Assembly (NCBI GenBank): GCA_043228905.1
Contig: JBHGNT010000009.1
Span: forward strand, 3,410,001 to 3,474,000
Direction of reading: 5' to 3'
Length of the DNA: 64,000 nt
From: Azolla caroliniana
Lineage: Eukaryota > Plantae > Polypodiophyta
Shown here in pieces: positions 20,625 through 64,000 of this stretch; the stretch's first letter is position 1, and each line of letters begins with the position of its first letter. Made by a program: the position numbers and the translations under genes. The notes below the pieces were generated by a model that did no database searches, was not told the origin of the DNA, and was given only the letters and a program-made list of their open reading frames with translations.

Positions 20625-20985
20625 TGAAAATGAAAATATTCTTTGTATTACAATGTATGGTTTAATGGTTAGGAACTTGACCCATGCAATGTTAGGTCAT
20701 GGGTTCAAGTCTCACCTTACCATGACATGAAGAAAACTAACATTTTTAGATGAAAAAATCACGCTTTTAAACATGAACTCGATACGCCGTATCGAGTTCA
20801 TGTAAAAAAGCAGCTTTTTTACATGATCGAGTTCATGTTTAAAAGCATGATTTTTTCGTGCAAAAGTATTAGTTTTGTTTCATGTCATGGTAAGGTAGGA
20901 CTCGAACCCATGACCTTACGCTCATGGGTCCAACTCCTAACCATTAGACCATATATTGTAACACAAGATAAAATCATTTTTAGAA
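20625..20985. repeat. ~350-bp inverted repeat with convergent tRNA-like heads
   Basis: Left arm ATGGTTTAATGGTTAGG...GGTCATGGGTTCAAGTC...CCTTACCATGACATG is mirrored at 20880-20960; a third head lies at ~21315-21390 (-). Confidence 0.85.
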
Positions 20986-21264
20986 ATATTATCAACACTA
21001 AGAATACTATATTAGCTTTTTAACATGAACTCGATACGCCGTATCGAGTTCATGTAAAAACGTTAGCTTTTCAACATGAACTCGATACGGCGTATCGAGT
21101 TCATGTTTAAAAGCGTGATTTGTTACATGAACTCGATACGGCGTATCGAGTTCATGTTTAAAAGCGTGATTTGTTACATGAACTCGATACGCCGTATCGA
21201 GTTCATGTAACAACTCGATACGGCGTATCGAGTTCATGTAAGATACGGCGTATCGAGTTCATGT
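20771..21264. repeat. Array of the 33-bp palindrome ACATGAACTCGATACG(C/G)CGTATCGAGTTCATGT
   Basis: Full copies at 20771, 21023, 21074, 21125 and 21176 (51-bp period in the cluster); truncated copies at ~21212 and ~21242; decayed copies at 19972-20320 and 21484-21640. Confidence 0.95.
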
Positions 21265-32274: not shown

Positions 32275-35200
32275 TTAAAAAATGGCCGACTCGGGTCTCC
32301 AATCTGTCTTCTGCACCGCGATAAGTGCTTCTGTTGATTTAGAGAAAGTCATCCGAACATCCCAATGGAGCGATTCAATCAAGGCTTGCACTTCACTCAT
32401 GCTATCCACCGATTCACGTACAATCAACCATCCACCGGGCCTCAATAAACGATCCATTTCAGCAATGACAACCTTAACATTGCACCTGCAAAAAGATAGG
32501 CTATCTATACTTAGCTTTTCTACAAGATGGGTTTACCTCTTTTACATTAAATGCAAGTCAACCTCTTTTACCTCTTCGTCAACCTGCTGAATAGATGGTC
32601 TGCATGAAGAAGATCGTAAGTACGAGGATATGAGCTGAAAGATTCACACCAATCATGATAGATTCCAAAGAGCCCTCGATCAAATATCACAGGCAATGTC
32701 TTCGGTGCATCAAACAGTACTACATTCATCACCCAGACTGGTTGGGACACAAGAGCAGCTGCGAATCTGTATATCAATAGAGAAATAAATTGTGTAAGCT
32801 TTGGTAAAGCTTATCAAACCATGCACTTCATTGTCCAAGGTAGCATTCAAAATGTGTTTACCCTCCATAAACTGCCCTCGTATCCATCACATTCCTAATA
32901 TTCTGCCATTCAATACCAAGACCTTGAAGGTACGACTTTTTTACAATACGCTCCCAACGTTCTGTGTCCGATTGGAAATCGGATACCCCATTCTGCCTTG
33001 CAGCCAGCCATGCTGGTGCTTCCAAAAGTCGTTGAGGCCACTTTTGAGGCCATTCAGCACCGTGGGCATTTGACTCGGCAGGTATCTTATGAAGGCAAGC
33101 AGTCATTGGAGTATACCTATGTCAACATGTACCACAAATCACCAATCATAAGCAAATATTGCTGAACCATGAAGAGGAAACTAGTTGCTTGAATTGGCAA
33201 GAACGTATACCATGCATCATCTGGTTTATCATCATCTTCACACATGGGAGGAAAATCTTTTTCCCTTTTCTCATAGCAATCATTGGTGGTAGGCTTCTGA
33301 AAAATAGCAGCTCCAATCCCTGTGGAAGGATCGACAAACTTTGCAACGAGTCTCCAGCACATAGCAATTGTCATTGCTCTTGTGTCTGCAATGATTGCAT
33401 CCAAAAGAATTTAAGAGTCTCATTCTAAGCCATAAAAAATGTAGAATCGTGCTTAATGCGCTTTTGAGAGTGTGACCTTTCCAGATCTGGACGTCTTCCT
33501 CATCATCCCAATAAACTGGCGTGGCCGACCAGACGAAATATCCACCAGGCCTCAAAACACGGTTTAGCTCCAAAAGGAGTTTGCCACCTATAGAAATGAT
33601 TATCAAAAGAAAGGCTTAATCCAGAGATATTGCAAGTCTATCCACACAAAGAGAAGAGAATGATCCAAGAAGGAATTTGGCAAGCTACCATATCCTTGGG
33701 CTCAACAAACGTCATGCAGTGTAATTCAAATTGATACCAAGAACGTGCCATACATCAACTTACAACATTATTGACGGTATCAAATGTAGCATACATACAC
33801 ATCACATCAATTCAAGACATTCATGCTACTTAATATGTTGCAGAATACATTGCAGAATTAAATTGCCGTAGACATACCTTCAATATGCCAGGGCACTCTA
33901 CACCGTGCACAATGGACAGCATCATAAACATTGCTTGGAAATACAAGTCGTTGGGTACCCATAACAGAAGATATCGCGGGAATTCCCCGTTCAAGAGCAA
34001 ACTGAACTTGTGCTTCGTGTTCATCTTTTGGAGCAAATGACATGGTAAGCACATCCCTATCAAACATATATCCACCGAAACTTGCAACTCCACATCCGAC
34101 ATCCAAAAGAACACGAGTGCGCTTTCCCCATCTGATCTTTGAAAATTTCTGGTTTCAAGGAAAATTTGTTGTGTGAAACAGCAGAAATAAACATGAGCTT
34201 GCAAACTCTAATCACAACGTCCATCTTAACAGAATGGGATAAACTATATGAGTATTATCCTTAAAACACTTTAAATTATGCGACTATCAAAGACTAAATT
34301 TTTGTCTATAGCTTTCTTTCAATCAATTTCAAACAGATGCTGGCATTTTTTGTATGAATAGATCTATGAAATATCGCACCTCCTCCACATAGTCAATGTA
34401 ATGGAGGGCACCATGTTTAAATTGAGTTCCTCCTCCAGGAAAAATGAGTCGATCATTGGACTTCTTCACCCACTGCTGATCTTTCTTATATGATACTAGT
34501 CCAGTATGAGGAACATTTTTATACCAAACCTGAATTGGAGAACAAGGCATTCATAATGGCTGTTAGTGAGTTGGACAATGAATAATATAATGAAATGTAA
34601 ATCACGTTACATCTTTGAGATATGAAGCCCATACAGCAAATAGAGTATATGCAGGTATTAATCGCAAAACACATCCAGTAATTCAGTTAGTGTGCAGCAT
34701 AAAGAAAAACCTCATTTAGATCACCTTACATTTTGAAGTAAGAATCAGATCACTGAGTCCAGCATGAAATGCATTACAACAATATATTAGCAATAAGTTT
34801 GGATATGCACCTCATTTCTACTGAGAGGCCACGTTATTGGTGTACGATAACCTTCCGGAAGAGGAACCAAGCATTCTGGTGCTGGATCAGGGCAATGTCT
34901 CTCCCGATGCTCATAATGCTTAGTACTGTGGAGCGCTTTTATTGCCTTTGTATTATCCAGACAAGGAATGTAGTCAACTCCAGCATTTGTATCACACAAG
35001 GTCCATTCAATCTTCTGCTTACTCGAGGTTTTCAAACTTTCGTCTGCATCATTGACACTATTATCCTCTGAACCATAGTCTGAGGTCTCCTTAGAGTTTC
35101 TCTTCTTTTGTGTTACATCAGTATCATCATCATACTTTGGAGATTCCGAAGTTTCTTTCGCTTTTATTATCAGTTCATCCTCATCTTTTTGAGACACGGG

Positions 35201-35647
35201 TTTTGACTCAGCTTCTGGTTCCAAATCTTCTGATACTTCTTCCTCTCTTGATATTTTGGCAGGATTTTGCTTCTCTAGGAAAGAGTCAGGTTCTGGTTCC
35301 GGTTCTGATTCTGATTCCTCAGATACTTCCTCCTCTTTCGACGCTTTGGAAGGCTTTGTTTCCTCGGGTTCATTCTTTGGGGTTTCCTCTGGTTTCTCCT
35401 CGGATTCCAATGTCGGGTCACCAGCACTCTCTTCAAAACTCTCATTAATATCGTTGTTACGGACCTTAATCTCAGGCTTTCCTTCTACTTCCACATCAAT
35501 CTCATTGCTTTCAGAGAATTGAGACTCAGAGGGAGAGCTCAATACCCATGCACCAATTAGACATAATCCAACAAAGACCACAGCTGTAACCATAACATAA
35601 AATGTTGGCACGCGCTTTTCTTGTCGGAAATTCTTCCCAGAGGCCAT
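32275..35647 (-). CDS. PMT: Putative pectin / SAM-dependent methyltransferase (DUF248, PMT24-27-like), type II membrane protein, 8 coding exons, ~734 aa
   Basis: Exons 35647-34811, 34529-34380, 34148-33878, 33587-33477, 33385-33211, 33116-32862, 32766-32572, 32485-32275; all GT-AG and phase-compatible (2205 nt). N-terminal TM and acidic stem; [56 protein letters not shown]. Confidence 0.95.
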
Positions 35648-38035
35648 GTTGATTAAATGCTTCTATGTGGCACAAGTCAATTAACTGTAGCATAAAAAAA
35701 AACAATATCATCACACGATCCAGAACACATATTTGAGTACAGAATTCAAGAGCTAAAGAATATGTGAGCTCATCTTGCCAGAGAGAAATGAGAACTACAG
35801 ACTCTTTTGTGCGTATGTGTGTATTATATAAACACACAGACACACACAATAGGTTGCAACTATGGTGAACAAAACCACCATAAGTTGCTAGACCATTGCC
35901 TTGTATACAATATTACAAGTACAAATAATATTCCCAGATGTAGCTGCATCCAGGCTTTCAGAGCCAAGTTAGCTTTAAGAGCATTTCTGCATTAATCTTC
36001 GTTCAGGATGAGGAAAGCAAGCTTGCGCCAAGAAAATTCTAGATATCATGCAGATCTGCAAATTCCTGGCCGATACAATGATATACAGTACTTCTAGGAG
36101 ACAGAGGAGCTAAGTCAATACTTTATGCATTTAGCATTAAATGCAAGCTTGCGCCAGCAAAATTCTAGATATCATGCAGATCTGCAAATTCATGGCAGAT
36201 ACAATGATATACAGTACATCTGGAGAACATAAGAACAAAGTCGTTACTTTATACATTTAGCTTCAAATGCAAGGAGCTTGTCTAAAGAAGTGATTCCTAT
36301 CTCTGGGACAAGTAGCTTTCCAAAGAGATAACGTTCGTCATCACAGCAAAGAATGAAAGAAAACAGCATATGATTTTTTTAATGACAAATAACGAGGCAC
36401 TAGACATAACTTACAAGGGGATCCATGCAGGCTTTCAAAACTAAGTCAAATAAGCATAATTCTTTTCATTAAACTTCAGTATAAGAAGTTAAAGTTGGTC
36501 CATAGAACTTCTGAATATCCTGCAGATCTACAAATTTCTGCAACAGCTGAATATATTTTGAATACAAGAAATGTGTACAACGCATTACTTCAAGCTTTCG
36601 GCATTGAGGTAAGGTGCATGAGAACAAAGGTTATCCGAGAACATCTGAATAGCAAGTAGATCTACAAGTTTCGGCAATGAATACACTCGCAGCACAATGC
36701 GTATGTAAAGCTTCCAGATCTGGTGTAAGGTGATGTGAGTGCCAGACATCCTAAAGAGACAAAAGATGATCTAAAAATAGGATTAGCTAAGCATAATTCT
36801 TCATTGAGTTTCTCTACATGAGAACAAAGCAGGTCCGAGAACATTATGCCATGTTTAGATCTACAAATTTCAGGAACACAATTGCATCAAAGTCCAATAA
36901 ATACACTCAATGCACAAGAGAGGTGCACCAGGCATTGCCTTTAGCTGTGAACTTCAAAGAATGGTAGCTCATAGTACGGAAGGTGGCAAAGGCTTTTCCA
37001 AGCTACCTGAGAAGACTAAAAGAGAGACCAAACTAGAACCAACTAAGAACAATTCTTCATATAGTTTTAATGCACAAAACAAAGCATGTTTAAGAGACTT
37101 CTGGACATCATGTCTAGATCTACTCGGAACAGAAGAAAGGCGTATGAGTCATTGCTTTAATATTTCACATTCAAAGGAATGTAGCTCAAAGTACGTGAAA
37201 ATGCAGAATCGTTTCCATGAAACCTGAGAGTGCTATAGGGGATCTAATGAGAACAGGTTGCTATGAGCACGTGAGAGTACCAAATATTTTCCACGAAACG
37301 TGAGAAGGCTAAACATGTATAGGTGGCTCGACGCCATACATCAGAGCACCAAAGGTAATTCCTCGGAAATCCAAGAAAGGTAAAGAAGATCTGATGCGAA
37401 TGAAGAAAGAAACAGGTGACCAAAGGAAGAGGAAAGAAAGGCTACGCAGTAGTTGCACGGACAAGATCGCATTTTTCCAATGAAGAAAGCGCATGAGTTA
37501 TTACGGCAAGCACTGCTCAAAGAAAGAAAGCGCGTACAAGAGACAAATGCGATGTCTCTCCAGCTATGGTGATGCTTTGCCTGATCGAAAGGGATATGAG
37601 AAGCAAAAATACCAGCACAGAAAATCGAAGTGCAAGAAGTTAACGTCACGCCACGGTAGCGTCCCAATGTGTGAGAAATGCAAGAAGAAAATAGGAAGGA
37701 AGGAAGGAGAGAATGTGATGTGACAGGGTGTGGGAGTACACAAGCAGGAGAAGGAGGAGGAGAAGCAGAAGTCGCCATAGCTAGCCAAGGCGGTGGAGAA
37801 ATGCGTACCTTCAGATTGCAGGGGTCGAGAGGATCTGCACGAGAGTGTGGTGGGAAGAAGCTCAAAGGCGGGAAGAAGAAGAAGAAGAAGGCACCATTGG
37901 CGAGAAGGTCTGGCCTAGAAATGCTGGCCCCCAGAGTGGGAAGAGACTCTGTGCTTGAGATGAGATCGGGATCTGAGTGAGAAATGCAGAGATGGAGATG
38001 GTGATGGAGATAGAGATGGAGAAGCTCCCCCACCT
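35648..38035 (-). other. Putative PMT 5' UTR with a ~2.1-kb intron (~37808-35686) and a pyrimidine-rich first exon
   Basis: Minus strand GAAG|GTACG donor near 37808, CTACAG| acceptor near 35686, CT-rich leader at 37810-38035. Confidence 0.5.
36017..36275. repeat. ~125-bp tandem duplication in the putative PMT leader intron
   Basis: GCAAGCTTGCGCCA..AAAATTCTAGATATCATGCAGATCTGCAAATTC at 36017 and 36142. Confidence 0.85.
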
Positions 38036-45276: not shown

Positions 45277-46813
45277 TGTAAAGAATCGAGTATGATTCTA
45301 TGCAGCGGAATAGGTTAAAGATGTGTGTGAAAGAGGAGAGAGGAGAGACAGAAGATAGGTTGGAAGATGAAATACTCAAGATGTATATTAACAAGAAGTA
45401 GAATGACACTTACAAAGTAGGAGGAGGGTGCTTTATATAAAGTCACCCTCTCACTAAACCACTCATGCACTCTCCAGAAACTTTGGGAGGGGGGAATCTC
45501 ATTAACTATGTATCATAGAGTGTAACTCCTATTGTTGGGGGCAAGGCCGTCAATGCGGAAGAGTAGACAACGTCTGTGATGGTGAAGAATCTACGTATGC
45601 GAGTTAACACTAGATAAGCACAGAGAGAGAGAGAGAGATAGGCACAAAGAAATAGGATTTTATTTCTCAATAGCAACAACTACAAGAATTACAACCAGCA
45701 GCTACTAACGGGTTACAAAGTCACTTTATATAGTGACTGTCCTAGGGCAACTGCCCTTTGTGCTATTTACAAAAATAGCCCAAACTTGGGCTGTCCAAGG
45801 GGACAGTGTGAATACGGCCATTATACACTCGTATTCGACATTCCCCCGTAATGGGCGTATACATGGGTTATCTAAAGAATTACAGGTATATATACAAGGT
45901 TTATCGGACAGATCGGTTTTGTCAGAGTCGGCAAGATCCGAAGACAGAAGACCGAACCAGTTGGGTCGGAAGAGCTGAAGCCGATCCTCAAAGAACCGAT
46001 GTTGGTGGTCCGAAACCGTCTTGTGTTGTGTGTCCAACTTTAACCGGACCGATTTTTCGTTACGCCCATTTGGTGCCGAAGGGGTCGGAAACGATCCGCC
46101 GAAAGACACTTGGTCATTCTATTTGCGACATTATTGGTTGTGGATATCTTCTCTAGACTGATTTTCCTTGAAATGACGCAGTCTCGAACGAAGTGATATC
46201 GAACGTCGATATGCTTGGAGGCGTTGTGGTGAACTGGGTTTTTTGACAAAGCAACAACACCCTGACTGTCGCTGTAGACAACTGGAGCCGAGTCGGAGTC
46301 GACCTGTCAGAATGTGTGCGCCAGCCGGCCGAGCCATAAAGCTTCTTTTGCCGCGTCGGACGCAGCTACATATTCCGCTTCGGTCGTTGAGGTGGCTGTG
46401 CACTCCTGAAGTTTCGACTTCCACGAGATTGCTCCATTGCTGAATTTGAAACAATATCCGGCTGTTGATTTCCGACTGTTCACACAACCGACGAAGTTTG
46501 AGTCGGTGTAACCGACTACGCATTGTCATAACTAGACTCGAACCCATAACCTTTTGTTACACGGGTCGAGACTTTACCATTAGGTTATGAATTGTAATTT
46601 GAAGGATATTATTTTCATTTAGGTTTTATTAGGAAATTGATGTATATTCCAGATTTCTCTGGAACATTCTAGAAACTTCAGGAGTATTCCTGAAGACACT
46701 ATAAAAGGAGGCGCAAGGCATTAGTTCGAACCAAATCGGTTCAACGCCAGTCTTAAGCCTTCTAACCACTGTTGTATATCTTCCTTCATATAATACATAT
46801 ATCTTTCGCATCA

Positions 46814-46859
<46 letters not shown>

Positions 46860-47095
46860 ACTCATTCCTTCTCTCAAAGTTCGACACCTCTCATAGTACT
46901 AATCCTTCTCTGTCTTAGTACTATTCCCCGACAATAGTACTAATCCTTCTTTTAGTACTAATTCCTTCTCTGCCTTAATAGAGTTCCTGACAGTTTGAAC
47001 CGATTTCTGTCGGTGCCTGTCTGGTTTTTTCTCTCCCTCTTCCTTCTGTCTCCCTCCTTTCCTATTAGTCTCTTATTCCCCTTTTCCTTCATCCC

Positions 47096-48265
47096 ATGGC
47101 CACCGTTAGCGCTGAAGAGTATCAATCCGTTTTCTCGGAATTTCAATGCTTGAAAGAGAAGTTTCATGCTTTGGAACAAGAAAATCAACGCTTGTTGGGG
47201 GATCTTCAGCAAATTTCCTTAGAAAAGCAGCAAACGCAACAACAGCATGGGGAACTTGCGTTACGCGTGCAACAACTCGAAGCAACCATCGTAGCAATGC
47301 AACAACAAGGGCACGGAGCACAAGGGATTCATAAAGAACCCAAGATTGGCCTTCCCACGAAGTTCGATGGAACGCGATCGCAGTTTAGAGGGTTTCTTAA
47401 CCAGGTACGGTTAGTTATTCAAATGCATCCGTCCCGATATCCCACCGATGCATCACGAGTGGGTTTAGTAGGCACGTTGTTAAATGGCTCAGCATTAGCA
47501 TGGTTCGCTCCGCTACTAGAAAAGGAATCTCCAGTACTAAATAATTTTGAAGAATTCATAAGTGAGTTTAAAGCATGTTTTGGAGATACTGACAGCATAA
47601 GGACTGCAATCAATAAAATCCGGCGATTACGCCAAGGTGACCGTCCAGCCTCCGCATATGCTGCAGATTTCCGCCTACTCGCCGCCGATATCCCCTGGGA
47701 TGATCAAGCATTGATGGAACAGTTCCGCTATGGTCTACGCAACGATGTCAAGGATTTACTCTTGACTTTCCCTGAAGAGCCAAAATCATTAACAGAAGCA
47801 ATCAGTCGAGCGGTCAGATGTGACAACCGCCTCTTCGAGCGACGTTCGGAACGACAATTTCAGATGCCGAGGGCAAGATCCGAGCCTACCTATGCCTCAG
47901 TGGTAGCGAAACCTTTTCAAAGGGAGTCACATAATGCGCCTCCAGTAAGTACTCCAACTCCAATGGAAATTGACACTACACGTCGTCGTGGGCCGCTATC
48001 GGAGGAGGAAAAGCAACGACGCCGAACAAACCGATTATGCCTTTATTGCGGTGGACCAGGGCATATCGCGATAAACTGTCCCCATAGACCAAGAAGGCAG
48101 GTAAACCAAGTCGTTGTTAGTTCTGACTATACTAAACCCGAGTCTATTTCAGTAGGAATCTCTGATAGTCCTCATAGTCATAATAGTCCTAATAGTACTA
48201 ATAGTCCGAATCTCGCAAACAAATTTGATATCCTTAGCCAATTAGAAGAAGAGTTAAACGACTAA
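47096..48265 (+). CDS. gag: Gag: coiled-coil N-terminus, PEG10/LDOC1-like capsid, CCHC zinc knuckle
   Basis: 389 aa; EPKIGLPTKFDGTRSQFRGFLNQ, LRQGDRPASAYAADF, PMEID, CLYCGGPGHIAINC. Confidence 0.95.
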   Translation: MATVSAEEYQSVFSEFQCLKEKFHALEQENQRLLGDLQQISLEKQQTQQQHGELALRVQQLEATIVAMQQQGHGAQGIHKEPKIGLPTKFDGTRSQFRGFLNQVRLVIQMHPSRYPTDASRVGLVGTLLNGSALAWFAPLLEKESPVLNNFEEFISEFKACFGDTDSIRTAINKIRRLRQGDRPASAYAADFRLLAADIPWDDQALMEQFRYGLRNDVKDLLLTFPEEPKSLTEAISRAVRCDNRLFERRSERQFQMPRARSEPTYASVVAKPFQRESHNAPPVSTPTPMEIDTTRRRGPLSEEEKQRRRTNRLCLYCGGPGHIAINCPHRPRRQVNQVVVSSDYTKPESISVGISDSPHSHNSPNSTNSPNLANKFDILSQLEEELND

Positions 48266-51200
48266 GTCCAGCCAAAATAGGAGCCGTTTGGTTGGACAGC
48301 CCTAGATCTGTGCAGCCCATTAGTGGTTCCATTCCCTCTAAGCAAGTTAGTGATGTGTTCGTAGCCCAAGTAGCAGTTAGTACTAAAAGTACCCCTCCAG
48401 TACATACCTTAGCCCTTCTAGATTCCGGAGCTAATTCTTGCTTCATGGATAGGAATTTTGCCCGAGCTCATCAGATATCTCTCAGAAAGCTCCCATGTCC
48501 AGCCTCAGTAGTAGTCATTGATGGTCGTCCCATTGCTTCTGGTAATATCATAGAAGAGTCGGAACCCATTAATATTGTCCTAGATAACTTAACATGTGTA
48601 GTATCATTTAATATTATTAGTATTCCAGAACATCCCATAGTTTTAGGATTACCATGGTTCGAGTTACATAACCCAGACATAGATTGGAGGACAAGGGAAA
48701 TCCGGTTGCGACAAACCCAAGGATCTACCCAGAAGGTTGCAACCATTTCGCTACGTCAGTTGCGTGAGGAAGGGCGCAAGGAGGAAATGTTTCTCTTCGC
48801 AATATCAGTACAACCCTCCTGCACCACCAAAGAGGAGTCCACCGTTCAACTTCCCGAGAAGTATCATCAGTATGCTGATGTGTTCGATAAAGTACAAGCC
48901 AACACACTTCCTCATCATCGGCCGTACGATTGCGCCATCGACTTACAACCGGGAAAAGAGCCGCCATGGGGGCCGATCTACAATTTGTCACCAACCGAGC
49001 TAGAAGTCCTTCGAGCCTATATAGAGGAGAATTTGGAGAACGGTTTCATTCGGCATTCGAAATCTCCAGCCGGCGCACCCATTTTCTTCGTCAAGAAAAA
49101 AGATGGCTCGCTTCGACTCGTTGTAGATTACCGTGGCTTGAATAAGGTCATAGTAAGAAATAGGTATGCTCTTCCCCTTATCTCAAGTCTTTTAGAACGG
49201 ATCAACGGTGCCAGGTTCTTCACGAAGATCGACTTACGAGGAGCCTATAACCTCGTACGGATCCGACCAGGAGATGAATGGAAGACCGCGTTTCGCACCA
49301 GATATGGGCACTTCGAGTATACGGTCATGCCGTTCGGACTCACTAATGCGCCGGCAGTCTTCCAGCACATGGCGAATGATATATTTCGAGATCTCTTGGA
49401 TGATTTTTTGATCATCTATTTGGATGATCTACTGGTTTATTCAAAGACCCAAGAAGAACATGATTCTCATGTACTATTAGTACTAAAACGACTTCGAGAA
49501 CATGGTCTGTATGCAAAGTTAGAGAAATGTAGTTTCGGGTGCAACCAAGTGGAGTTTCTCGGCTATGTCATCTCCTCAGAAGGCATATCTATGGACCCAG
49601 CCAAGGTCAAAACGGTGATAGAATGGCACACTCCGCGTTCGGTGCGGGATGTGCAATGCTTCCTAGGCTTTGCAAATTTTTACCGGAAGTTCATACAAAA
49701 TTACTCAAAAATTGTGCTGCCTCTCACACAGCTCACCAGGAAGGGACAATCATTCATCTGGTCTAAAGAGACGGACATGGCTTTCGAGAGTCTTAAGAAG
49801 GCGTTTACATCAGCTCCAATTTTAGGTCATGTGGATCCGGAAAAACCATTCATTATCGAAGCTGACGCATCGGATTTCGCATTGGGGAGCATTCTGTCAC
49901 AACAAGGTAACGACGAGAAGCTACATCCTGTGGCTTTCCACTCCCGTAAGTTTGACGCCGCCGAAATCAACTACGAAATTCATGATAAAGAGCTATTAGC
50001 AATAGTTGATTCTTTTATGCAATGGAGGCATTTCCTGGAGGGATCTCCTCATCAGGTCACTGTATTCAGTGACCACAAGAACCTTGCCTACTTTCAAGAT
50101 GCTCGTGTACTGAATCGACGTCAAGCTCGGTGGGCCCACTTCCTCACACGCTTCGACTTCAAAATTACATATCGTCCGGGGAAGCACCAAGGGAAGGCAG
50201 ATGCATTATCACGGCGTTCGTATCTAACACCACGTCCCGGTGAGCCAGCTTTCGATAACCAGAAGCAAGTAATCTTGGGTCCAGCACGACTGCAAGCAGC
50301 ACAGGTCTTTGACATGCCCGTGGATTCCGACATTACCAATACTATACGTGAGGACTTGAAGACTGACGCTTTCGCCCAAGCTATACTAGCACAAATTGAC
50401 CCCTCTCGAGCGTCATGTTCACAATCACAATCACCAGGTACGGATTATCGGCAATTCAAATACTGTGATGGATTACTCTTCTTTAAAGAACTTTTGTATG
50501 TTCCTAATGGTTCTTGCCGCCTTCGAGTAGTACAAAACTGCCATGACACATATACAGCAGGACATTTTGGTAGTACTAAAACATTAGATTTAGTACAACG
50601 ATCATTCTGGTGGCCCCGTATGCGACAATTTGTCGAAGATTTTGTCCGGACTTGCGATACATGCTGCAGAGCGAAAATGCCAAGACATCATCCATATGGT
50701 TTATTAGAACCATTACCAATTCCAAGCAAGCCATGGCAATCCATTGCTCTTGACTTCATTACAGATCTTCCAGTCTCTAAGGGATTCAGTGCGATTCTCA
50801 CAGTGGTGGATCGATATACGAAGATGGCTCATTTCTTACCATGTACTAAAGAAATATCTAGTGAAGACACCGCCGAAATTGTCATGCGGGAAGTATGTCG
50901 GCATCATGGACTCCCTGATAATATCATCAGCGATCGTGGACCCCAGTTTGTGTCAAAATTCTGGAAGCACCTTTTTAAAATGCTGAAGGTCACTTGTAAC
51001 CTCTCCTCCGGCTACCACCCACAAACCGACGGTCAAGCCGAACGAACAAATCAAACACTGGAGCAGTATCTGCGGTGCTTTCTCAACTATCATCAGAATG
51101 ACTGGGCAGATATTCTTCAGTTCGCCGAATTTGCCTATAATAACGCTATCCACGCATCGACTAAAGTCACGCCATTCTACGCTTATACAGGATATCATCC

Positions 51201-51849
51201 CCGGTGGTGTGTCCTTGAAACCCCAGAAGTGTCCACAAATCCGTGCGCGGAGGATCGTTTGGAGCGGTTACGCAAGATACAAGCGGATTTATCTACTCAA
51301 CTCCAGCAAGCTCAACAATCACACAAGGACTACGCAGATCGTCATCGACTTCCATCCAGTTTTAACATTGGAGATCGGGTGTGGCTGCTACGACGACACA
51401 TCAAGACTACTCGCCCATGTGAGAAGTTGGATTATCGGCGATTAGGTCCTTTCCGTATTATCGGGAAGATTAATGATGTCGCTTTTCGTCTCGAGCTACC
51501 TCCGCAACTTCGGATACATCCGGTGTTTCATAGTTCTCTCCTCGAACCCTATCACGAGAGCACTATCCCAGGACGTACTATACAACCACCACCTCCTATC
51601 GAGCTCGAAGATGGACCTGAGTATGAGGTCGCTGCCATCCTCGATTCCAAGATTGTTCGCAACAAGCTCTACTATCTAGTCGATTGGCTAGGATATAGTC
51701 CCAGCGAGCGTACTTGGGAACCGATCGAGAATGTGACCAATGCTCGTGCTCTTCTAGAAGACTTCCATCGACGATATCCCGAGAAACCGGGTCCTCAATC
51801 CAAAACGACTCGTGGAACTCGTCGTTTTAAAGGGGGGATAGTGTCATAA
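48260..51849 (+). CDS. pol: Pol (PR-RT-RNase H-integrase-chromodomain) in the -1 frame relative to gag
   Basis: LLDSGA, YLDD, DASDFALG, H..H..CDTC, ISDRGPQF, GPF, chromodomain YEVAAILDSK..YYLVDWLGY...TWEP. The frame is open upstream of the called TTG at 48292; the stop lies inside the 3' LTR. Confidence 0.95.
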
Positions 51850-52131
51850 CTAGACTCGAACCCATAACCTTTTGTTACACGGGTCGAGACTTTACCATTA
51901 GGTTATGAATTGTAATTTGAAGGATATTATTTTCATTTAGGTTTTATTAGGAAATTGATGTATATTCCAGATTTCTCTGGAACATTCTAGAAACTTCAGG
52001 AGTATTCCTGAAGACACTATAAAAGGAGGCGCAAGGCATTAGTTCGAACCAAATCGGTTCAACGCCAGTCTTAAGCCTTCTAACCACTGTTGTATATCTT
52101 CCTTCATATAATACATATATCTTTCGCATCA

Positions 52132-52181
<50 letters not shown>

Positions 52182-55100
52182 ACTCATTCCTTCTCTCAAA
52201 GTTCGACACCTCTCATAGTACTAATCCTTCTCTGTCTTAGTACTATTCCCCGACAATAGTACTAATCCTTCTTTTAGTACTAATTCCTTCTCTGCCTTAA
52301 TAGAGTTCCTGACACGCATGAGGTTGAGTTCGGGCCGAAGAGAATGTCGTGGTCTTTTGTGCTAGCTAGATATCTGAACACATGCTTGATTGCGTTCCAG
52401 TGCAATCGGCCGGGGTTGTGCATGAATCTGCTGACGACTCCTACGGTGTGAGAAATATCAGGCCGTGTCGCGACCATAGCGTACATAAGGGAGCCGACTG
52501 CCGGTGCATACGGTACCGACTTCATATCTTCCCCCTCCGAACCGGATGTCGGGCAGTCTCGCTGAGACAGCCGAAGGTTAATGGGGAGCGGGGTCGAAGT
52601 AGACTTGGCCGAGTGCATGTTGAAGCGTTCCAAGATACGTCTGATGTAGTCGGTTTGAGACAAGAAAAGTTGTCGTTTATCACGATGCCGACTAATCTTC
52701 ATACCAAGTATGTGTCTTGCCGGACCAAGGTCCTTCATGGCAAACTTCAACCGTAGTTTCCGAACGAGTTCGGTGAGCTCACCGGCATGCTTGCCAGAGA
52801 GGAGCATGTCATCCACGTAGATGATGAGGAAGACGGGAGACCTATCTTGAGCTGTTTTGGTAAAGAGACAGTGGTCCTCATCGCTCTTTGAGAAGCCGAC
52901 CGATTGGATGAAGTCGTCGAACTTCTTGTACCACTGTCAGGGTGCTTGTTTGAGGCTATAAAGACTCTTCCTGAGTCGGCAGACTAGATGTTCCTGGCCG
53001 AATGCCACAAAGCCTTTCGGCTGCTCTATATAGATTTCCTCCTGTAGGTCACCGTGGAGGAATACCGTTTTTACATCTAGCTGACTCAACTCCAAGTTGT
53101 TGGTGGCCACGACGCCGAGCATGAAATGAAGGGTCGTCATTTTCACCATTGGTGAAAAGATTTCATCGAAGTTGACGCCATATTCTTGTCTAAATCCCTT
53201 TGCAACTAATATGGCCTTGTACTTTGAGTTGGTCGAGTCGGACGTTTCTTTTAGTTGATAGACTCACTTACATGGAACAACACGTCGATTCTCCGGTAAG
53301 TCGAGTAAGTCCCAAGTCTTGTTTGCCTGAATGGAGTGCATTTCCGACTCCATCGCTAGATGCCATGTGGCTGAATCGACAGATGCCGATTCTTCTTCGT
53401 AGGACGTTGGTTCGCTGATGTCGTTAAAGAAAATTCCGGGAGAGGACCTGTCCGGAGGTTGCGATAGTCTCTCGGATATGCGAGGTATGACTGGACTAGT
53501 CGCGCCGGGTGTCAATGTCAGATGGTCGGGAGCCGAGCCATTCGGTTGTGCTGAATCGATGGATTCAGGACGAGAGGTGTCGGTTACCCGTGAAACCGAT
53601 CTCGTGTTGTGGGCTGGGCCTTCATGAAGGGTTGGCACTTCGGAGAATATTACCCTTCGGACTTCAATAGGCCTTTCGGCCGTTTTATGCATAGCCGACT
53701 CATTGAACACGACGTCTGAACTTCGGATGATTTGTCTGTGCTCGGGGTCCCAGAGTCGGTATCCGATCTCACCGTCGGGTCCATACCCAAGGAAAACACA
53801 TTTCCTTGATCTTGGTTCGAGTTTCCGGCGATCGTCTTTCGGTATGAGGGCGTATGCCTCGCAACCGAAGATCCTCAGCTTGTCATAATTCGGCTTACTG
53901 CCGGTCCATACTTCTTGAGGTATTTGAAGTCCTAGAGGTCTACTTGGCGACATATTTATTATGTGTACTGCCGTAAGTAGAGCCTTCGCCTAGAAGCCAT
54001 CCGACAATCTGGATGGTTGGAGCATGGATACTACGCGTTCTTGAATCGTCCGATTCATGCGTTCTGCAATTCCGTTCTGCTTTGAACTATAGGGTGCCGT
54101 ATATTCACGTCGAATGCCGCGTTCTCGGCAAAATTTGACAAATTCTTCAGACTTGAATTCTCCTCCATTATCGGTTCGGAGACATTTAAGTTTCCGACCA
54201 GTCTGGTTTTCGACCATTGCAAGCCATTCGGAGAAGATCGAGAACACCCGATCTTTGGTTCTGATGGGGTAAGCCCACACCTTCCGAGTCGAGAGACTGA
54301 TGTGGCATCGGGCCACAGACGTCCGAGTGGACCAAATCGAGGGGACTTGATTCTCTTGGTGCTGATGTCGGATGTGATGCGGCTACCTGTTTGCCGTACT
54401 GGCAATGCTCACAGAATTGATGATCTGAGAAGGAGAGCTTGGGGATGTAACCGACTCTGGATAGGTGCGTTATGCCAGCCTTGTTTAGGTGTCCAAGTCA
54501 TCCGTGCCATAACGATGACACGGGGATATCAACAAAAAATAAGTCACCCTCTTTAAGTGTGACATATAAAGGGTACAAAGAGTGTACCTTCGGTCCTTGA
54601 GCAAGCAAGAGGTTCCCTTTGTGGAGTGTCCACCCTCCTGATGAGAATCCGACATGAATGCCGGCTTCGTCAAGTTGTCCGACTGAGATCAAGGGTCTTG
54701 AGAGCTCAGGAACGTGTCCGACATTGTGTAGTACGAGTGCAGAGCCACCCGGAAGGTTGAGCTCTATAGTGCCGATTCCGGTTATAGCACAGTGCTGTGA
54801 GTTTCCGACTTGAACTAAGTTAGAGTGCCGGTCCGAGTATTGCTGAAACTAAGATCGGTGAGGTGTCACATGATATGATGCGCCCGAGTCAAGAAGCCAT
54901 GTGCTCGATTCCTCAGTCGTAAGCAGAACTTCTGATTCGACTGGGTTCTCTATGAACTGTATGTTTGGGTCGGTCGTCAAAATTTCGGCTGAAGAGCCGA
55001 CATAGTTGACCTCCTCATGCCGGCTACTCTTCTGATCCGCTCTTTGAGATTTGTCGGTTTTTGCTTTGAGTGCCCAACAGTCGGCTTTGATGTGTCCCAG

Positions 55101-57967
55101 TTTCTTGTAGTAGTTGTAGATTCGGTTGTCCCGGGACTTGCTCTGGTTTCGCTAATTGTTCGGCGGTCGGGAAGAACTTCTTCCCTGGTTGTTCGATCGG
55201 TCAGTCGAACCTTGTACTACGTAAGCTTCATCTGCCGAGTCTTTGGCGAAAGACTTTCTCCAAGCTGCTTCAGTCAGGATTGCGCTCGTGACTTCGGAGT
55301 ACTTAACGGCATCTGTTGAAACATTGCACACGGTTGTAACGAAAGTTTCCCATGAAGAGGGGAGGCTACTCATGAGTATCATTGCTCTGATTTCATCCTC
55401 GATTGCCGTCCCCTGAGACGAGATTTGGGAGCTTATGCTTTCGTACTTGTTGAGGTGTGCCTAAACCGAATCAGATTCTTTCATCCGCAAGTTGTAGAGG
55501 CGCCGGATCAGATACATCTTCGTTGCGGCGACCTTCTTTTCATAAGTTTCCGACAATGTTTTCCAAAGTTCAAACGCTGTCGTGCATGATTGCACTGTGA
55601 AGTACACTGACTCCAACAAGTGCATCCGAATCGTGGCTCGGATGACCAGCTTTAGCCACTCGTTTGCCTTGTATGCTTCTGGAGGATTTTCATTCTCAAT
55701 CGGGTCTATCTGACCCTTGACTATGAGATAGTCCTGCATTTGTTTCTTCCAGAAGTTGAAGTTCGAACCGTCGAACTTCCTTAGACTCATCTCCGATGAG
55801 CCGGATGTTGATGCCATCTAATTCGGTTTCAGCTGGGAAGACTCGGTTTGGAGTTGACTACGAACCTTAGTGGGGTGTAGTCAATCGACTCACCCGATAT
55901 CGTTCTAGTCGGTTTTGAACCCGAGTCGGTTTGGTTTTGGATACTTGTTGCTGAACTTGCTCGGAGTGACTCCGATAACTTGAGGGACAGAGCCGGCTGG
56001 TCTTCCCGAATGTTGCCGAGTCGGAGTGAGCCCGGTTAGCTTCCGATTGTATGCCGAATACCGATTACACGAGACCGATTGTTTGGACCGATTCAACTTC
56101 GGATGACTGTAGCGATGAGAGGGACGGATCCAACTGATCTTCCCGAATGTCGATTAGCCGAGTGAAGCACGAATTTGGTTGGTTGTTTCGAGACCAATCT
56201 GCAGCGGGTAGTTACAACAAGCTGGTGAATAGCATTCGACGACCTATTCGGATGTTGTTTAACCAAATGAAGCACGATTGGGTCGGTTGTTGCGCAAGAA
56301 GCTCCCCTCAAGCGGTTACAATCACAAGAACAGAGTACAACCGACTGGCTTACTCCAATTTTTGATTTAACACAGTGAGATGCGAGCTTTTGTTTTTCTT
56401 CTCCCTTCTTTATTCTTCAAGGAAAACGAAAAATGGAATGTTGTGTGGTGTACTATGACGGCTGACAGCGGGTTGAAGAACCTCCAACGCTCTGATACCA
56501 AATGTTGGGGGCAAGGCTGTCAATGCGGAAGAGTAGACAACGTCTGTGATGGTGAAGAATCTGCGTATGCGAGTTAACACTAGATAAGCACACAGAGAGA
56601 GAGAGATAGGCACAAAGAAATAGGATTTTATTTCTCAATAGCAACAACTACAAGAATTACAACCAGTAGCTACTAACAGGTTACAAAGTCACTTTATATA
56701 GTGATTGTCCTAGGGCAACTGCCCTTTGTGCTATTTACAGAAATAGCCCAAACTTGGGCTGTCCAAGGGGACAGTGTGAATACGGCCATTATACACTTGT
56801 ATTCGACACCTATGACACATGAGTTATGTTACAAGACGCATTAATCAGTCAACACTTTTTATACAAGCCCTAACGAGTGGGTTGACACAAGTACCCTCAG
56901 TACTTGAATGCTCATAAATGATCCTGACACTGATTTTGCCTACAATATTCCTATCTACCATAATAGGAATATCGGCCCTCAACGGCGTTTTTGGAATCCT
57001 TCCGCCTCGGCCCACCCGAGTCAAACTTTCTTCGATTCGGCTCCCAACTCTCGACCCTCGTCTTCTTTAGCCGATTTAGCCCATGTTGAGCTTGTCTCTC
57101 AACACTCCTCCTCAAGCTCAACTTGAGGTCCCTCTGTGTCAGTTCTAGTTGGTCCGTCATTCCAGCCTCTTCTCCTGGCGTCTCGATGCCTTGTTCGTGC
57201 TCCTCGTCCAGTTTGGCCTTGTGTCCCATGACCCCTTTGGTCCGACGCTTCTCGACTCAACTGGTTCCGTGCACCTCGACCCTTACGGTTGGCTTGTCTG
57301 CTTCCAGGGCCCTTGTTAGTTCCCTTGCTGTTGCGGTATTAGCGCCCCTCGACCCGTCGGCTCCTCCGTGTCGGCATCGGTTTCGACTGCCTCCTCGTTC
57401 GCGTGGCCTCTGTGTAATTCGGATCGTCCGAATCACCTTCCATGATCGAATCAGCTAGTTCCGATTTGTTCCAACTCTTGTCCAAATTGACTGTCTCGAA
57501 TTCGTCCTCCTTCAATCCCTTGCCCACTGACGAGAAATGTGTAGAATAATCTTTGGCCACAACCGAAGCTTACATCACTTGATGACAATCAAACACAGAA
57601 GAAATGGGAATGGAGGTAATTACACAAATAGAAAAAAAAGAGAATGTACAGGATGTTAACGTGGAAAACCCTGAGAGGGAAAAACCACGGGAGCCCACAG
57701 ACTCCAAACTATCGCTATGTCAAAAATACAACAGAGAGCATAGAGGCAACGACCTCTTTCCCTCAATCTTCGCCTGGCGGCGGTTACAACAGAGACACAA
57801 TCTCTATATATTGCTCTCTCTCTTACGCACTGTACAAGAGTTACACCAATAACTCTCTCTTCTTCTGAGTTTGCCCTAGGTCATATTTATACTAATATGA
57901 CTTTCGGGCTATTTACAAATATAGCCCTAGTGGGCTCTCTGGAACATATTTACATATATGTCCATCC

Positions 57968-58140
57968 GATGAGAGGTTCTCACCGGGTCTGCAACATCCG
58001 GTTCTCACCGGGTCTTCCTTGCCGGGTACTCGTCATCCGGTTCTCACCGGGTCTGCATCATCCGGTTCTTGGTACTCCACATTTGGTTCTCACCGGGTCT
58101 TCCTTGCCGGGTACTCCACATCCGATTCTCACCGGGTCTT
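57968..58140. repeat. CCGGTTCTCACCGGGTCT sub-repeats in Copia B U3 (also at 63928-64000)
   Basis: About five interspersed copies visible. Confidence 0.85.
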
Positions 58141-58841
58141 CCATTGCTGGGCCTTCGTATCCCATCCGGAGGGACCGAGATCCTAACAAATTCCCCCTTC
58201 ACTCCGGCATGGGAGGCCTCGTCAATCCGATCCGCTTCCGGCATGCATCTAGCTTGTCGGGCGTCAGCACCTTGGTCAGCATATCCGACCCGTTTTCCTT
58301 CGTGTGGATCTTTGTCAGCACGAACTCTCGGTCTTCTACTCGCTCCCAAATCCAGTGGTACCTCCGCTGGATGTGCTTCATCCTGGAATGATACGATGCG
58401 TTCTTCGCAAGGTGGATGGCACTTTGATTGTCGCAATAGAGCCGATATTCCTCTTGCCGGATCCCTAGCTCTTCGATGAAGTCCTTCATCCATAGTATTT
58501 CCTTGCCGGCTTCCACAACTGCCATGTACTCCGCTTCCGTGGTTGACAACGCAACCGTCTTCTGCAGCCTCGATTGCCACAAAACAGCTCCCCCCGCATA
58601 TGTCATGACATATCCGGATGTTGACCGGCTGGTATCCGCATTAGCCGACATATCCAAATCGGTGAAACCGTCAAGTTGGGGTTTACCGGAGCCGAATCGG
58701 AGACACATACTTGAGGTGCCTTTCAAGTATCGGAGTATCCATTTTACCGCATTCCAATGCTCCTTTCCGGGATTGCTCATAAACCGGCTCACCACTCCGA
58801 CTGCATATCCGATATCCAGTCGGGTACACACCATTGCGTAC

Positions 58842-59276
58842 TGTTAAGTAATTAGGTAATTAACTAGGGTTAATTAGAGACTAATTATATAGTTACGTTA
58901 AGCAGCGGAAGATTAGTATGATATGCGCGTGAGAGTGTGTGAGAGGAAGAGAGAGAGAGTAAGTTACACTTATGAACACGAAGATAAATGGGGGATGATT
59001 GACTATATTGAAAATTGTCATCAACTACAAAAATACCCACAATGAGGTATATATACAACCCATGTGCAAAGGTGCACATGTGTGGGTAGAACATAAGTAC
59101 TTATGTGTAAGTCCTACATTAAATGTACTGAGTGGAGGATCTAGAATATCCCACTTAAGTACAAGGTCCTATTTAAAGGCTTAAGGTCAACACATTAACT
59201 AGATTCGATCTAGGTAACTATTAAGTTACATGTGTTGACTAACTAGATTAAACTAGTTGAGCTTGATATCTCAACA
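58842..59276 (-). mobile_element. Solo LTR (435 bp) in Copia B RT/RNase H region
   Basis: TGTT...AACA; TSD CGTAC at 58837-58841 and 59277-59281; splits host GSLMY|AMVCTR. Confidence 0.92.
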
Positions 59277-62200
59277 CGTACATTAGGCTCCCGACGGCAG
59301 AGGCATATGGTATCTTCATCATATTCGCCTTCTCTGCCTTCGTCTTCAGGCTTTGCTTACCGGATAACCTGCAGTTTGCCGGAAGTGTTGATCCGACCGA
59401 TTTCGCATCTAACATGTTGAACCGCTGAAGCACCTTTGTCACGTACTTATCCTGTGACAACCACAATTGCTTCGTTGGTCGGTCCCGGATGATATGCATC
59501 CCCAACATCTATCTTGCCGGACCCAAGTCTTTCATTTAGAAGGTCCGGTTCAGGGCCTTCTTTAGCATCCGTATCTCGACTTGGTCTCGTCCAACGATCA
59601 ACATGTCGTCCACATACAAGAGGAGTATCAAGAAGTCTCCACCTTCGAACTTCGTCACAAATACGTAGTGATCGGCCTGCGTCTTGTGGTACCCTTGATT
59701 GTTCATGAAGGAGTCGAACTTATGGTACCATTGCCGGGGAGCCTGCTTCAACCCGTAGAGGCTCTTTTTTAATCGGCAAACCAGGTGCTCCTTCCCTTTT
59801 TTCACAAAGCCCTCCGGTTGCTGCATGTAGATCTCCTCTTTGAGGTCGCCGTGGAGGAACGCCGTCTTCACGTCTAACTGCTCTACCTCGAGGTCCATGC
59901 TTGCCGCTATGCTCAGCACCATCCGGATGGAAGTCATCTTTACTACCAGGGCAAATATCTCGTCGAAGTCCACGCCCTTCTTCTGCTGGAACCCCTTCAC
60001 CACGATCCTAGCTTTGTACCTTGGAGGGTTGCCGGCATCTCCCGGTTTGAACTTGTACACCCACTTGTTTCGAAGTGCCCTCTTTCCTTTCGGCAACTCC
60101 ACCAATTCATACGTGTGGTTCTTATGCAGGGCATCCATCTCGTCCTGTATGGCACTCTACCACTTGCGGCTATGGGTGTCATCCTTCGCTTCTTCGAAGC
60201 TTTCTGGCTCCCCCTCATCGGTCAACAGCACATGCTCTGCATCCGGAAATCTCTGGGGGGGCCTTCTCTCTCTGAGAGGATATCTCCGTCTTTGGCTTTC
60301 GGCAACCAGCTCCTCTATTTGTTCTTCATCCGAATCCAATTCGGGGTCTTGGTCAGTTCCGGTTTCGGCTTCCTCTACTTCTTCTTCTGCCGGTTCAGTA
60401 TCCTCACCGTAACTGGCTGGTTCCTCGAGTGTCAACCGGCTCTTAGCCGGGTGGGTCCGGATCTCAACGGAGTTCATTATCTTCTTCTCCGACTCCTAGT
60501 CGGCAAGATCTTGTCCTCCATGAAGATAATATCTCGGCTCCGGAAAACCTTCTTGTCAACCGGATCCCACACTCGGTAGCCGAACTCATCATCGCCGTAT
60601 CCGAGGAATATGCATGGCCGGTTCTTTGGATCCAACTTTCCTCTCTGGTCCTTAGCAACATGCATGTACGCGAGACACCCGAACACCTTCAAATGCCGGT
60701 AGGACACTTGCTTACCGGTCCACACCTTTTGCGGCGTGTCTCCATCCAAGGGCACTGAGGGTGATCTGTTTATCACATACGTCGCTATCGATAGCGCCTC
60801 ATCCCAAAACGTCTTGGGTAGTTTAGCATTTTCTAGCATACTCCAGACCCTCTCCATTATGGTCTGGTTCATCCTCTCGGCCAACTCGTTTAGTTTCGGT
60901 GTCTTCGGCACGATAAATTCGAGCCGGATTCCCTTCGAGCGATAGTACTCCTCGAACTGCCCTCGGTATTCTCCTCCGTTATATGCTCGAACCGCCTTCA
61001 GCTTCCGTCTGGTTTCTCTTTCCACTCTTGTGTGGAACTCATTGAAGACGGATAACACCTGATCCTTCATCTTCAACTGTGTGGCCCACAGCCTCTTGTT
61101 GTGGTCATCTATGAACGTCACGAAGTACAGTGCTCCGGCATGGAACTTCGTGTCCACTTGACACACATCGGTATGCACCAAGTCCAATGGTGGCTTATGT
61201 CTCATCGATGGCCTTGATCGGAAGGAGGTTCGATTTTGTTTACCAGCTAGGCAGTCGGTGCACCTCTCAAGATGCACGTTCTTCACTGGAATGAGGTTGT
61301 CATCGGCAAGCCTCTTCATCCCCTTCACGCTCATGTGACACAGTCTCTTGTGCCACAACTCACTGGCAGTGTCGGAAGCCACGTTCACTTCTTCCGAGCA
61401 TAACCGGGCATTCATCAGGTACAACGTGTTGACCTTCTCGGCCCGAGCCACTATCAGGCTCCCTATGCTGAATTTCATGACTCTGTTCCGGATGCTACCC
61501 ATGTAGCCTTCATCATCTAGCCCACCGGCTGATATTAGGTTTAGTCGAACCTCAGGAACGTGTCATATATCCTTTAGCAGTAGCTTGCATCCGGTTGGTG
61601 TTGTCAACCACACGTCTCCTATGCCGACAATTCGGCATGTACCTTCATTCCCCATCCGGACATAGCCGTGATCACCGGTTGTGTAGGATGAGAAGCATTT
61701 CCGGTTCGGGGTAAGGTGGAACGACGCTCTGGAATTGACAACCCACGTTGTCTCGTCGCCGGCAAGGTTCAACTCACTGTCCTCGGTGATGAGCATCAAC
61801 TCTTCTTCACTTGCCATGATTGTCGTCATTCCCTTCTGGTTTGTTCCCCTCCGGTCTTTACCGTTTCGGTCCGGTGTCCGCTTCGAATTGGTACCGTCGG
61901 TTTCCTTGTCCTTTCGGAAGTGCCGACAATTCTTCTAGAAGTGTCCCGGCTTGCCGCAATAGAAGCAGGTAGGCCTCCCCCTTGACTTTGACCGTGTCCC
62001 CGACTTTTCCCGGTTCTGGGGACTACGGTTCCTTTGTCTTTCGCGTTCTGATTCGGTAAGGAGCGCTTTGGAGTCGGAGCTCGTATCCTTATCTTTCCAA
62101 CATGCCTCCTCATCTAGCAAGCTCGACTTCACTCTTGCTAGGGATAACCGTTTCCCTTCCGGCCCGATTTGCCCAAGGTGACAACCAACGTCTCCCAGTT

Positions 62201-62281
62201 ATCTGGGAGGGAACCGAGCAGGAGTTGTGCTAGTACCTCATCGGCAAGAGGTACTTCCAATGATGTTGCCTGGTGGATCAG

Positions 62282-63048
62282 TGTTGGGAGATAGGTCCCT
62301 TCGGATGGGAAGGAAGAAGAACAGTGCCGGCCGAGGCCGATAGGCCGAGGCCAAAACGGTATGAGGAGTACCTGGCTACGAAGAGCCGGATGATACAGAC
62401 CCGGTGTGAACCGGATGAGGAGTACCCGGCTACGGAGAGCCGGATGGTGCAGGCCCGGTATGAACCGGATGAGGAGTACCCGGCTACGGAGAGCCGGATG
62501 GTGCAGGCCCGGTGTGAACCGGATGAGGAGTACCCGGCTACGGAGAGCCGGATGGTGCAGACCCGGTATGAACCGGAGGAAGAGACATATTCGTAAATAT
62601 GTTTCTGAGAGCTCATTGTGGCTATATTTGTAAATAACCGAAAAGTCATATTAGTATAAATATGACTTAGGGCAAACTAATATGTGTGGTTGTTATTTTT
62701 TCTTGTTGGTGCAAGAAGAAGAGAGAGCACGTAACAGTGTATAGAGAGAGAGTGAGAGAAAGAGGTCGTTGCCTCTGCTGTAACCGCCGCCTGTGGCGAA
62801 GAACGTGAGTCCGAGGTTGTTGCCTCTGAGAACTCACTGTTTTGTACATTCATACATAGTGATAGTTTGCAGCCTGTGGGCTGCCGTGGTTTTTCCCCCT
62901 AGTTTGGGGTTTTCCACGTAAATCTCATGTGTAGTGTGTGTGTATCTTCCTCTCCTTTGTATCGTGTTTTATTTCCCGTTTTTCTGTGTAAGTAAAGAAT
63001 CTCGGTTGTGGCCGAGCGTCGGACATAAGGAACGTTGGGTTCTCGTCA
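62282..63048 (+). mobile_element. Solo LTR (767 bp) of a Copia-B-related family, inserted antiparallel in Copia B gag; contains a 54-bp tandem repeat (~4 copies, 62362-62580)
   Basis: TG...TCTCGTCA; TSD ATCAG at 62277-62281 and 63049-63053; shares GGTCCCT.CGGATGGGA, AAAGTCATATTAGTATAAATATGAC and TCGGTTGTGGCCGA with the Copia B LTR. Confidence 0.92.
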
Positions 63049-64000
63049 ATCAGCCCCTGGAAGGCATTCATGTGCTCTGCCATGCTGGAGCCATCTTGGT
63101 ACCAGAGCCTTACTAGCTTCCGAAATACCGAAACTTGATTAACAACATTTTTGTTCTGAAACATAATGCCGATCTTCTCCCAGAGCTCATGAGCCAAGGC
63201 TCTCTTCATTGAAGTTGTTGTATAGACTCATGTCGATGAAGCACCGTATGTACACCGTTGTCTTCATGTGCATCACCTCCCAAATCGTGGCGTCGATTTT
63301 TTCCGGTCTCTTGTCCCCGAACTGAACTGGCAACCAAAGATCGTTGACCACGAGCATGTCCCTCATCTTTGACTTCCACACTGAGTAGTTGGAGCTGGTG
63401 AGCTTGAACATGCCTCCCAACGAATTGTCCATTTTTTTCTTTGTCGTTTCGCTCCGATACCAATTTGACGAGAAATGTGCAGAATAATCTTCGGCCACAA
63501 CCGAAGCTTAGATCACTTGATGACAATCAAACACAGAAGAAATGGGAATGGAGGTAATTACACAAACAGAAAAAAAAGAGAATGCACAAGATGTTAATGT
63601 GGAAAACCCTGAGAGGGAAAAACCATGGGAGCCCACAGACTCCAAACTATTGCTATGTCAAAAATACAACAGAGAGCACAGAGGCAACGACCTCTTTCCC
63701 TCAATCTTCGCCTGCGACGGTTACAACAGAGACACAATCTCTGTATATCGCTCTCTCTCTCTCTCTCTCTCTTACGCACTGTACAAGAGTTACACCAATA
63801 ACTCTATCTTCTTCTGAGTTTGCCCTAGGTCATATTTATACTAATATGACTTTCGGGCTATTTACAAATATAGCCCTAGTGGGCTCTCTGGAACATATTT
63901 ACATATATGTCCCTTCCATCCAATGAGAGGTTCTCACCGGGTCTGCAACATCCGGTTCTCACCGGGTCTTCCTTGCCGGGTACTCGTCATCCGGTTCTCA

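Follow-up and report, generated by a model that had tools for sequence, protein, structure and literature searches.

A Ty3/gypsy chromovirus in the genome of Azolla caroliniana (Polypodiophyta) probably primes its reverse transcription with the first bases of its own transcript and not with a tRNA. The element, which lies in a window of 64,000 nucleotides (the whole stretch of DNA analysed here, from contig JBHGNT010000009.1), is intact and recent, is likely of the Tcn1 type, and carries a primer-binding site (PBS) that matches a 12-mer in its own long terminal repeat (LTR, the 12-mer being termed the arm below); judging from the sequence, we put the probability of this reading at roughly 0.88. 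The whole chromovirus occupies 46524-52314 (5791 bp) and has intact gag and pol ORFs, and its 5' and 3' LTRs are identical save for 4 nt in a CT microsatellite, which argues for a very recent insertion. It lies within a copia element of the minus strand whose own PBS is of the tRNA-Met type (Table 1). The exact LTR/PBS junction is present in 266 copies genome-wide, and that of a sister type in 655, in a genome of 523 Mb; plant genes, including a PPR-E gene, are also found in the window.

Table 1. Features of the chromovirus and of the surrounding window, with window positions and the basis of each annotation.
Feature	Position	Strand	Evidence or remarks
5' LTR	46524-46992	+	469 nt; TG..CA ends
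3' LTR	51842-52314	+	473 nt; arm copy at 52051-52062
TSD CGCAT, 5 bp	46519-46523	+	second copy at 52315-52319
TATAAAA box	46700-46706	+	33 nt before arm; 32-33 nt in all related families
Arm, 12 nt; predicted transcript 5' end and self-primer	46733-46744	+	sequence, covariation and inversion breakpoints; start placed indirectly
Predicted RNA cut	between 46744 and 46745 (+12/+13)	+	inversion breakpoints
Two predicted U5 hairpins from AGTACT palindromes	46893-46960	+	predicted folds; within loop closed by primer/PBS duplex
PBS TTGAACCGATTT, preceded by GT spacer	46995-47006	+	sequence match to arm
Hypervariable post-PBS patch	47007-47011	+	2-9 nt across pattern-picked copies
gag ORF: Retrotrans_gag, Ty3_capsid, weak CCHC knuckle	47096-48265	+	ORF and domain matches
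pol ORF, overlapping -1 frame: protease, RT, RNase H, integrase, SH3, chromodomain	48238-51849	+	
Polypurine tract, adjoining 3' LTR	51829-51841	+	
Defective family-B relative, TSD CCCCC	22662-26717	-	U3, 11-nt arm 26456-26446, 12-nt linker, RT to chromodomain, 3' LTR
Truncated related LTR, arm 20555-20566, no PBS	20370-20730, bounds approximate	-	
Copia-type element, tRNA-Met PBS, hosts chromovirus	45533-56808	-	only 4 exact-junction genome copies
Second copia-type element, tRNA-Met PBS	about 57530-64000	-	
PPR protein piece with E motif	1154-2788	-	
AAA ATPase piece	3721-5301	+	
Senescence regulator piece	10446-11309	-	
SAM methyltransferase piece	34787-35662	-	

The original prediction held that the PBS at 46995-47006 and LTR positions 46733-46744 are exact reverse complements, that the TATAAAA at 46700 lies about 30 nt upstream of this arm and that no TGG tRNA site follows the 5' LTR, and we found all three statements to be correct, the TATA distance being 33 nt. 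The 12-nt arm/PBS pair is the longest reverse-complement match between the leader and the LTR, and a match of at least 12 nt arose by chance in 2 of 20,000 first-order Markov resamplings of the LTR. In line with the expectation that no tRNA end would fit, a search with the PBS in a partial sample of 40 distinct tRNA genes of 12 types, complemented by one T-arm pattern search, yielded no 3'-end match. The best tRNA matches to the PBS region measure 9-11 nt and all lie inside T-arms (Asn, Thr, Gln, Ala): those of tRNA-Thr(GGU), -Gln and -Ala genes offer 10-11 complementary nt, and that of tRNA-Asn offers 9 nt with the GT spacer included. On this basis one might argue that priming is done by a host tRNA fragment whose end lies in the T-loop, the LTR match being incidental or captured. 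We regard this as extremely improbable, since in this partial sample the tRNA matches are internal and none is at a 3' end; moreover, the last two PBS bases fall outside these matches and yet match the LTR and never vary among 85 copies, and arm/PBS types D, F and G have no GGTTC T-loop match but still match their own LTR at 12 of 12 positions. As a separate observation, nuclear tRNA genes were found to be tightly clustered, each cluster holding a single type or a few (Lys-TTT, Ile-TAT, Asn, Cys; loci L290-L319, L321 and L322), some of them degenerate.

Compensatory change between arm and PBS across families, for which the original prediction had proposed to look, was indeed seen. We identified eight arm/PBS types in which each arm has its own matching PBS (AAATCGGTTCAA, AAATTGGTTCAA, ATTCGGTTCAA, AATTCGAATCAA, ATTCCGGTTCAA, AGTTCGAGTCAA, AATTCGGATCAA and AATTCGGTTCAA), using genome loci recovered by LTR and gag searches together with 46 of 79 screened metagenome loci; an arm/PBS pair was present in 15 of these 46, with many old or short loci lacking a match. 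The 11-nt type ATTCGGTTCAA is that of family B, for which a PBS of the form TTGAAYCGAAT had been forecast, and genome copies of family B carry it. All eight types lie 32-33 nt from the TATA box, and their PBS always follows GACA-GT. Across 62 loci, with anchors chosen blind to pairing, arm and PBS form on average 11.08 of 12 Watson-Crick pairs versus 10.02 after shuffling (maximum 10.42 in 2000), in a test where the loci may be related, kinship being uncontrolled, and which includes three mis-anchored rows. The motif was also said to be retained in related LTRs at ~20555, ~22803 and ~26446. Here, the LTR-side arm is present, on the minus strand in all three cases, but the PBS after it is missing, and a single defective family-B copy accounts for both 22803 and 26446, which mark its two ends and hence do not provide independent support. 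A hairpin spanning the start, formed by an upstream GAACC and the arm, was considered as a conserved feature and rejected, as it occurs in families A and C and is absent from B and D.

When the leaders of other copies were folded, the duplex between the predicted transcript 5' end and the PBS had P>0.5 in 59 of 59. For the window copy, the predicted duplex probability was 0.32 with 30 nt and 0.07 with 90 nt of downstream sequence, and this poor folding is predicted to result from a competing hairpin formed by the copy's own post-PBS patch (see below). The 368-nt leader folds with a z of -4.45 and contains two predicted U5 hairpins; a U5 stem-loop inside the priming structure is a feature of Tf1-type self-priming. 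Pairing and covariation do not by themselves show priming, and the start of the transcript is placed by its spacing from the TATA box, so that the duplex might instead be structural or regulatory, serving packaging, translation or dimerisation, with priming carried out by something else. We consider this very unlikely, because the duplex sits exactly at the position of a PBS, no other primer site exists, variation sets in exactly at the 3' edge of the PBS and R breakpoints cluster at the 3' edge of the arm, as described below.

The chromodomain, TSD, size, overlapping frames and RT-RH grouping of the element together make it likely to be a Tcn1 member. Its domain order, PR-RT-RH-INT plus chromodomain, is that of Ty3/gypsy and the one expected of Tcn1. 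The translated chromodomain in the pol ORF has a Y..W..Y aromatic cage and appears to be of Group I, its YEV..YLVDWLGY fitting by eye the aromatic-cage and chromo-box residues given in the accessible text of PMC3350952. In an RT-RH tree of 33 rows chosen from 120 matches, none of them named Tcn1 (midpoint root, long branches flagged), the element falls among fungal, frog and fish elements and is separated from the seed-plant and Closterium rows by a split of 100/100; RT-RH identity is 55-58% with the frog and fish rows and with most basidiomycete rows, and 43-47% with seed-plant rows. A moss or lycophyte host is a further expectation for a Tcn1 element. A PDB search with the element returned generic Ty3 and retroviral matches only. 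As far as the accessible parts of the sources go, Tcn1 elements share with this one a 5-bp TSD, overlapping gag/pol frames, predicted self-priming, an aromatic-cage chromodomain and an affinity to fungal and vertebrate elements (PMC6317226; PMC2864245; Novikov 2012, PMC3350952), and their size range of 5.5-9.4 kb includes the 5.8 kb found here. The same partial record bears on novelty: self-priming was predicted for 83% of 1500 Tcn1 elements (Neumann et al. 2019, REXdb, PMC6317226), and for Selaginella SM-Tcn1 evidence of self-priming was not found (Novikova 2010, PMC2864245). The inference that a plant element self-primes is supported, but the original prediction underrated the prior art, and the basic mechanism, already predicted for Tcn1 in plants, is not new. 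In the accessible text of PMC6317226 the Tcn1 prediction comes from complementarity, and a covariation table, a cut site, a post-PBS patch and inverted integrants are absent from that text.

Directly observed are the pairing and its covariation, the abrupt start of variation after the PBS, and the inversion junctions with their TSDs; to these we fit the following sequence of events. Transcription would begin at 46733, and the first 12 nt of the RNA are predicted to fold onto the PBS. By analogy with Tf1, and from the breakpoints, the RNA would be cut after base 12, presumably by the RNase H of the element, so that minus strong-stop DNA would end at +13. Plus-strand DNA would then copy the retained primer, at which the onset of variation after base 12 and the PBS-to-U3 joints hint indirectly, and rebuild the PBS from the LTR arm in every cycle, so that arm and PBS would change together and their covariation is expected on mechanical grounds. 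Finally, reverse transcriptase would run off the 5' end of the primer and add untemplated bases, which would be fixed at the second strand transfer as a variable patch, and mis-transfer of the same intermediates would give rise to integrated inverted copies.

Tf1 reportedly uses an 11-nt self-primer that is cut by RNase H. In Tf1 and Tf2 of Schizosaccharomyces pombe and in Tj1 of S. japonicus, the PBS pairs with the transcript 5' end, as predicted here, and PBS-directed joints are likewise seen (accessible texts of PMC5341516, PMC4600332 and PMC11042837); the U5 structure predicted here inside the loop is another point of resemblance. Unlike in Tf1, the primer here would be 12 nt long (11 in family B) and combined with a GT spacer, and self-priming, established by experiment in Tf1, is proposed from sequence in the present case.

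To characterise the sequence that follows the PBS, we used 88 pattern-picked copies, of which 85 lead into gag; the remaining three, which are PBS joints to other element parts, were dropped. PBS bases 11-12 are invariant in 85 of 85 copies although they lie outside the search pattern, and diversity rises from 0 at these bases to 0.58 at the next one (C30/T46/G7/A2), whereas the background over U3-R, U5 and gag, taken from 61 copies, averages 0.005-0.012 and includes five subfamily sites that exceed 0.3. The patch differs in 41 of 46 pairs of the same leader class that are otherwise identical over 873 nt, and patches contain G and A too, the leader being CT-rich. Similar post-PBS variation was seen by eye in family C. 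In a control of 70 tRNA-Met sites, which gave 19 pairs at >=90% identity, the next 12 bases are identical in 12 of 19 pairs versus 4 of 46 for family A, the control pairs being more distant than the family-A pairs and some of them probably local duplicates. Some tRNA-primed control subfamilies likewise show 1-2 nt of variation at the edge of the PBS, and a second control family (16 copies, ~92% identical) shows CpG-type changes after the PBS and length changes in 2 of 16; the host copia family, with only 4 copies, was too small to serve as a control. We infer that plus strong-stop DNA ran off the primer and that its tail became fixed as the patch; the primer 5' end would then lie at 46733. Untidy strong-stop ends in Ty1 are related prior art. 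In four copies (L360, L161, L167 and L128) the patch complements bases just upstream of +1, over 3 nt and once over 11 nt, which suggests occasional upstream starts that give longer primers.

A second kind of scar was found at 20 loci, where U5-GT-PBS is joined to the reverse complement of the sequence just upstream of the arm. These loci comprise one normal element, in which the patch copies 11 upstream bases, two with longer LTR pieces, two duplicates of another event and 15 independent truncated events. In the 15 events R-U5 starts at +11, +12, +13, +15, +15, +17, +19, +25, +27, +37, +54, +114, about +125, +156 and +159, positions that are blurred by a few bases through short microhomologies. 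The R segment begins between +11 and +19 in 7 of 15 events, between +1 and +10 in 0 of 15 and between +25 and +159 in 8 of 15; the binomial probability of the +11 to +19 cluster is about 1e-6 for a 9-nt window that was chosen after the data had been seen. Reversed U3 mostly ends at the TG end of the LTR, and among the 11 events followed to the far end the 5-bp TSD is exact in six, matches at 4 of 5 positions in one and is not resolved in four. One locus (L373) has a second junction at +13, and in two others (L354 and L355) the inversion continues past the arm on its upstream side and reaches U3. Read most simply, the inverted integrants are mis-transferred reverse transcription products, with minus strong-stop DNA ending near +13, where +1 is taken to be 46733 from the TATA spacing and the C/A start context. 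A genome-wide comparison of junctions at +13 and at +1 (2 events in 11 matches versus 3 in 30, with 30 of 36 examined) was non-discriminating at so few events, and a mutation hotspot at -1, as a mark of an uncut RNA start, was rejected, with 36 changed sites there and 43 at a C of the same context that served as control.

Both scars could have other causes even if self-priming is true, namely slippage in a neutral pyrimidine tract for the patch and, for the inversions, recombination at the DNA level between the inverted 12-nt arms with a subsequent deletion. The CT-rich leader and the PBS-edge variation in some controls would fit the former, and an arm-to-arm inversion would likewise be bounded at +13. 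We nevertheless judge this account unlikely: G and A occur in patches as well, and copies that match everywhere else have different patches; no truncated event among the 15 has the form of a simple arm-to-arm inversion that continues into leader and gag; and the extension of reversed U3 mostly to the TG end, together with exact TSDs in 6 of 11, fits the action of integrase on finished cDNA.

For an origin of both scars in reverse transcription, the accessible Tf1 literature offers parallels. Most 3' ends of Tf1 cDNA receive untemplated bases from Tf1 reverse transcriptase, and a single-stranded PBS persists on about 50% of this cDNA (PMC11042837), properties that we liken to the features described here, which are deduced from the genome alone. 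In vitro, the enzyme has strong template-independent synthesis and uses a 2-nt clamp, an activity that was set apart from the classical strand transfers (PMC3035444). Such a clamp and untemplated addition could be the source of both the patch and the microhomology jumps. Tf1 insertions at PBS homology do not depend on integrase; the inverted copies described here differ from them in having TSDs and intact LTR ends. Our search, in which coverage of the subscription literature was thin, found no published description of a post-PBS patch or of inverted integrants.

Several further arrangements were noted. The family-B copy at 22662-26717, whose RT-chromodomain part is split by an insertion at about 25968-25051, has a 12-nt linker, and 7 of the first 8 linker bases agree with the reversed LTR end; this copy may be a mis-transfer product of the same kind in which extension stopped after about 8 nt. 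The truncated LTR near 20555 interrupts a palindrome-rich array at 19940-21530, which consists of units of about 51 nt with long inverted repeats and is MITE-like or foldback in character. Elsewhere in the genome, family-A copies form a nest (L149/L150 at G000:C2:12.255-12.275 Mb, L363 and L364), in which an inverted integrant lies inside the gag of another copy and recurs as a passenger at two more loci, and in which one LTR-PBS is joined to the PPT end and a second LTR via a 3-nt overlap. In addition, a low-depth contig from a public run (X10) that corresponds to window positions 46662-46744 has the arm followed by reversed U5, which is the inversion junction described above; that it derives from RNA is a guess.

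What is new here is independent, genome-only support at both ends of the primer: variation sets in sharply at one end, and breakpoints cluster at the other. The family is young, has many copies and covarying relatives, and yields exact predicted positions, with +1 at 46733 and the cut at +12/+13, and both footprints could be sought without wet work in any candidate self-priming lineage. More tentatively, and at somewhat less than even odds, the second strand transfer may proceed via an untemplated tail made off the capped self-primer, such that nearly every new copy receives a freshly written post-PBS sequence. If true, each insertion would be barcoded by its post-PBS sequence, the leader would shorten stepwise (the gag ATG lies about 101, 88, 78 or 50 nt past the LTR) and priming would sometimes be disabled, which is the prediction for the window copy. 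Together with the inverted integrants, the post-PBS scar would then constitute a genome-only proof of self-priming that maps the start and the cut of the primer in any lineage.
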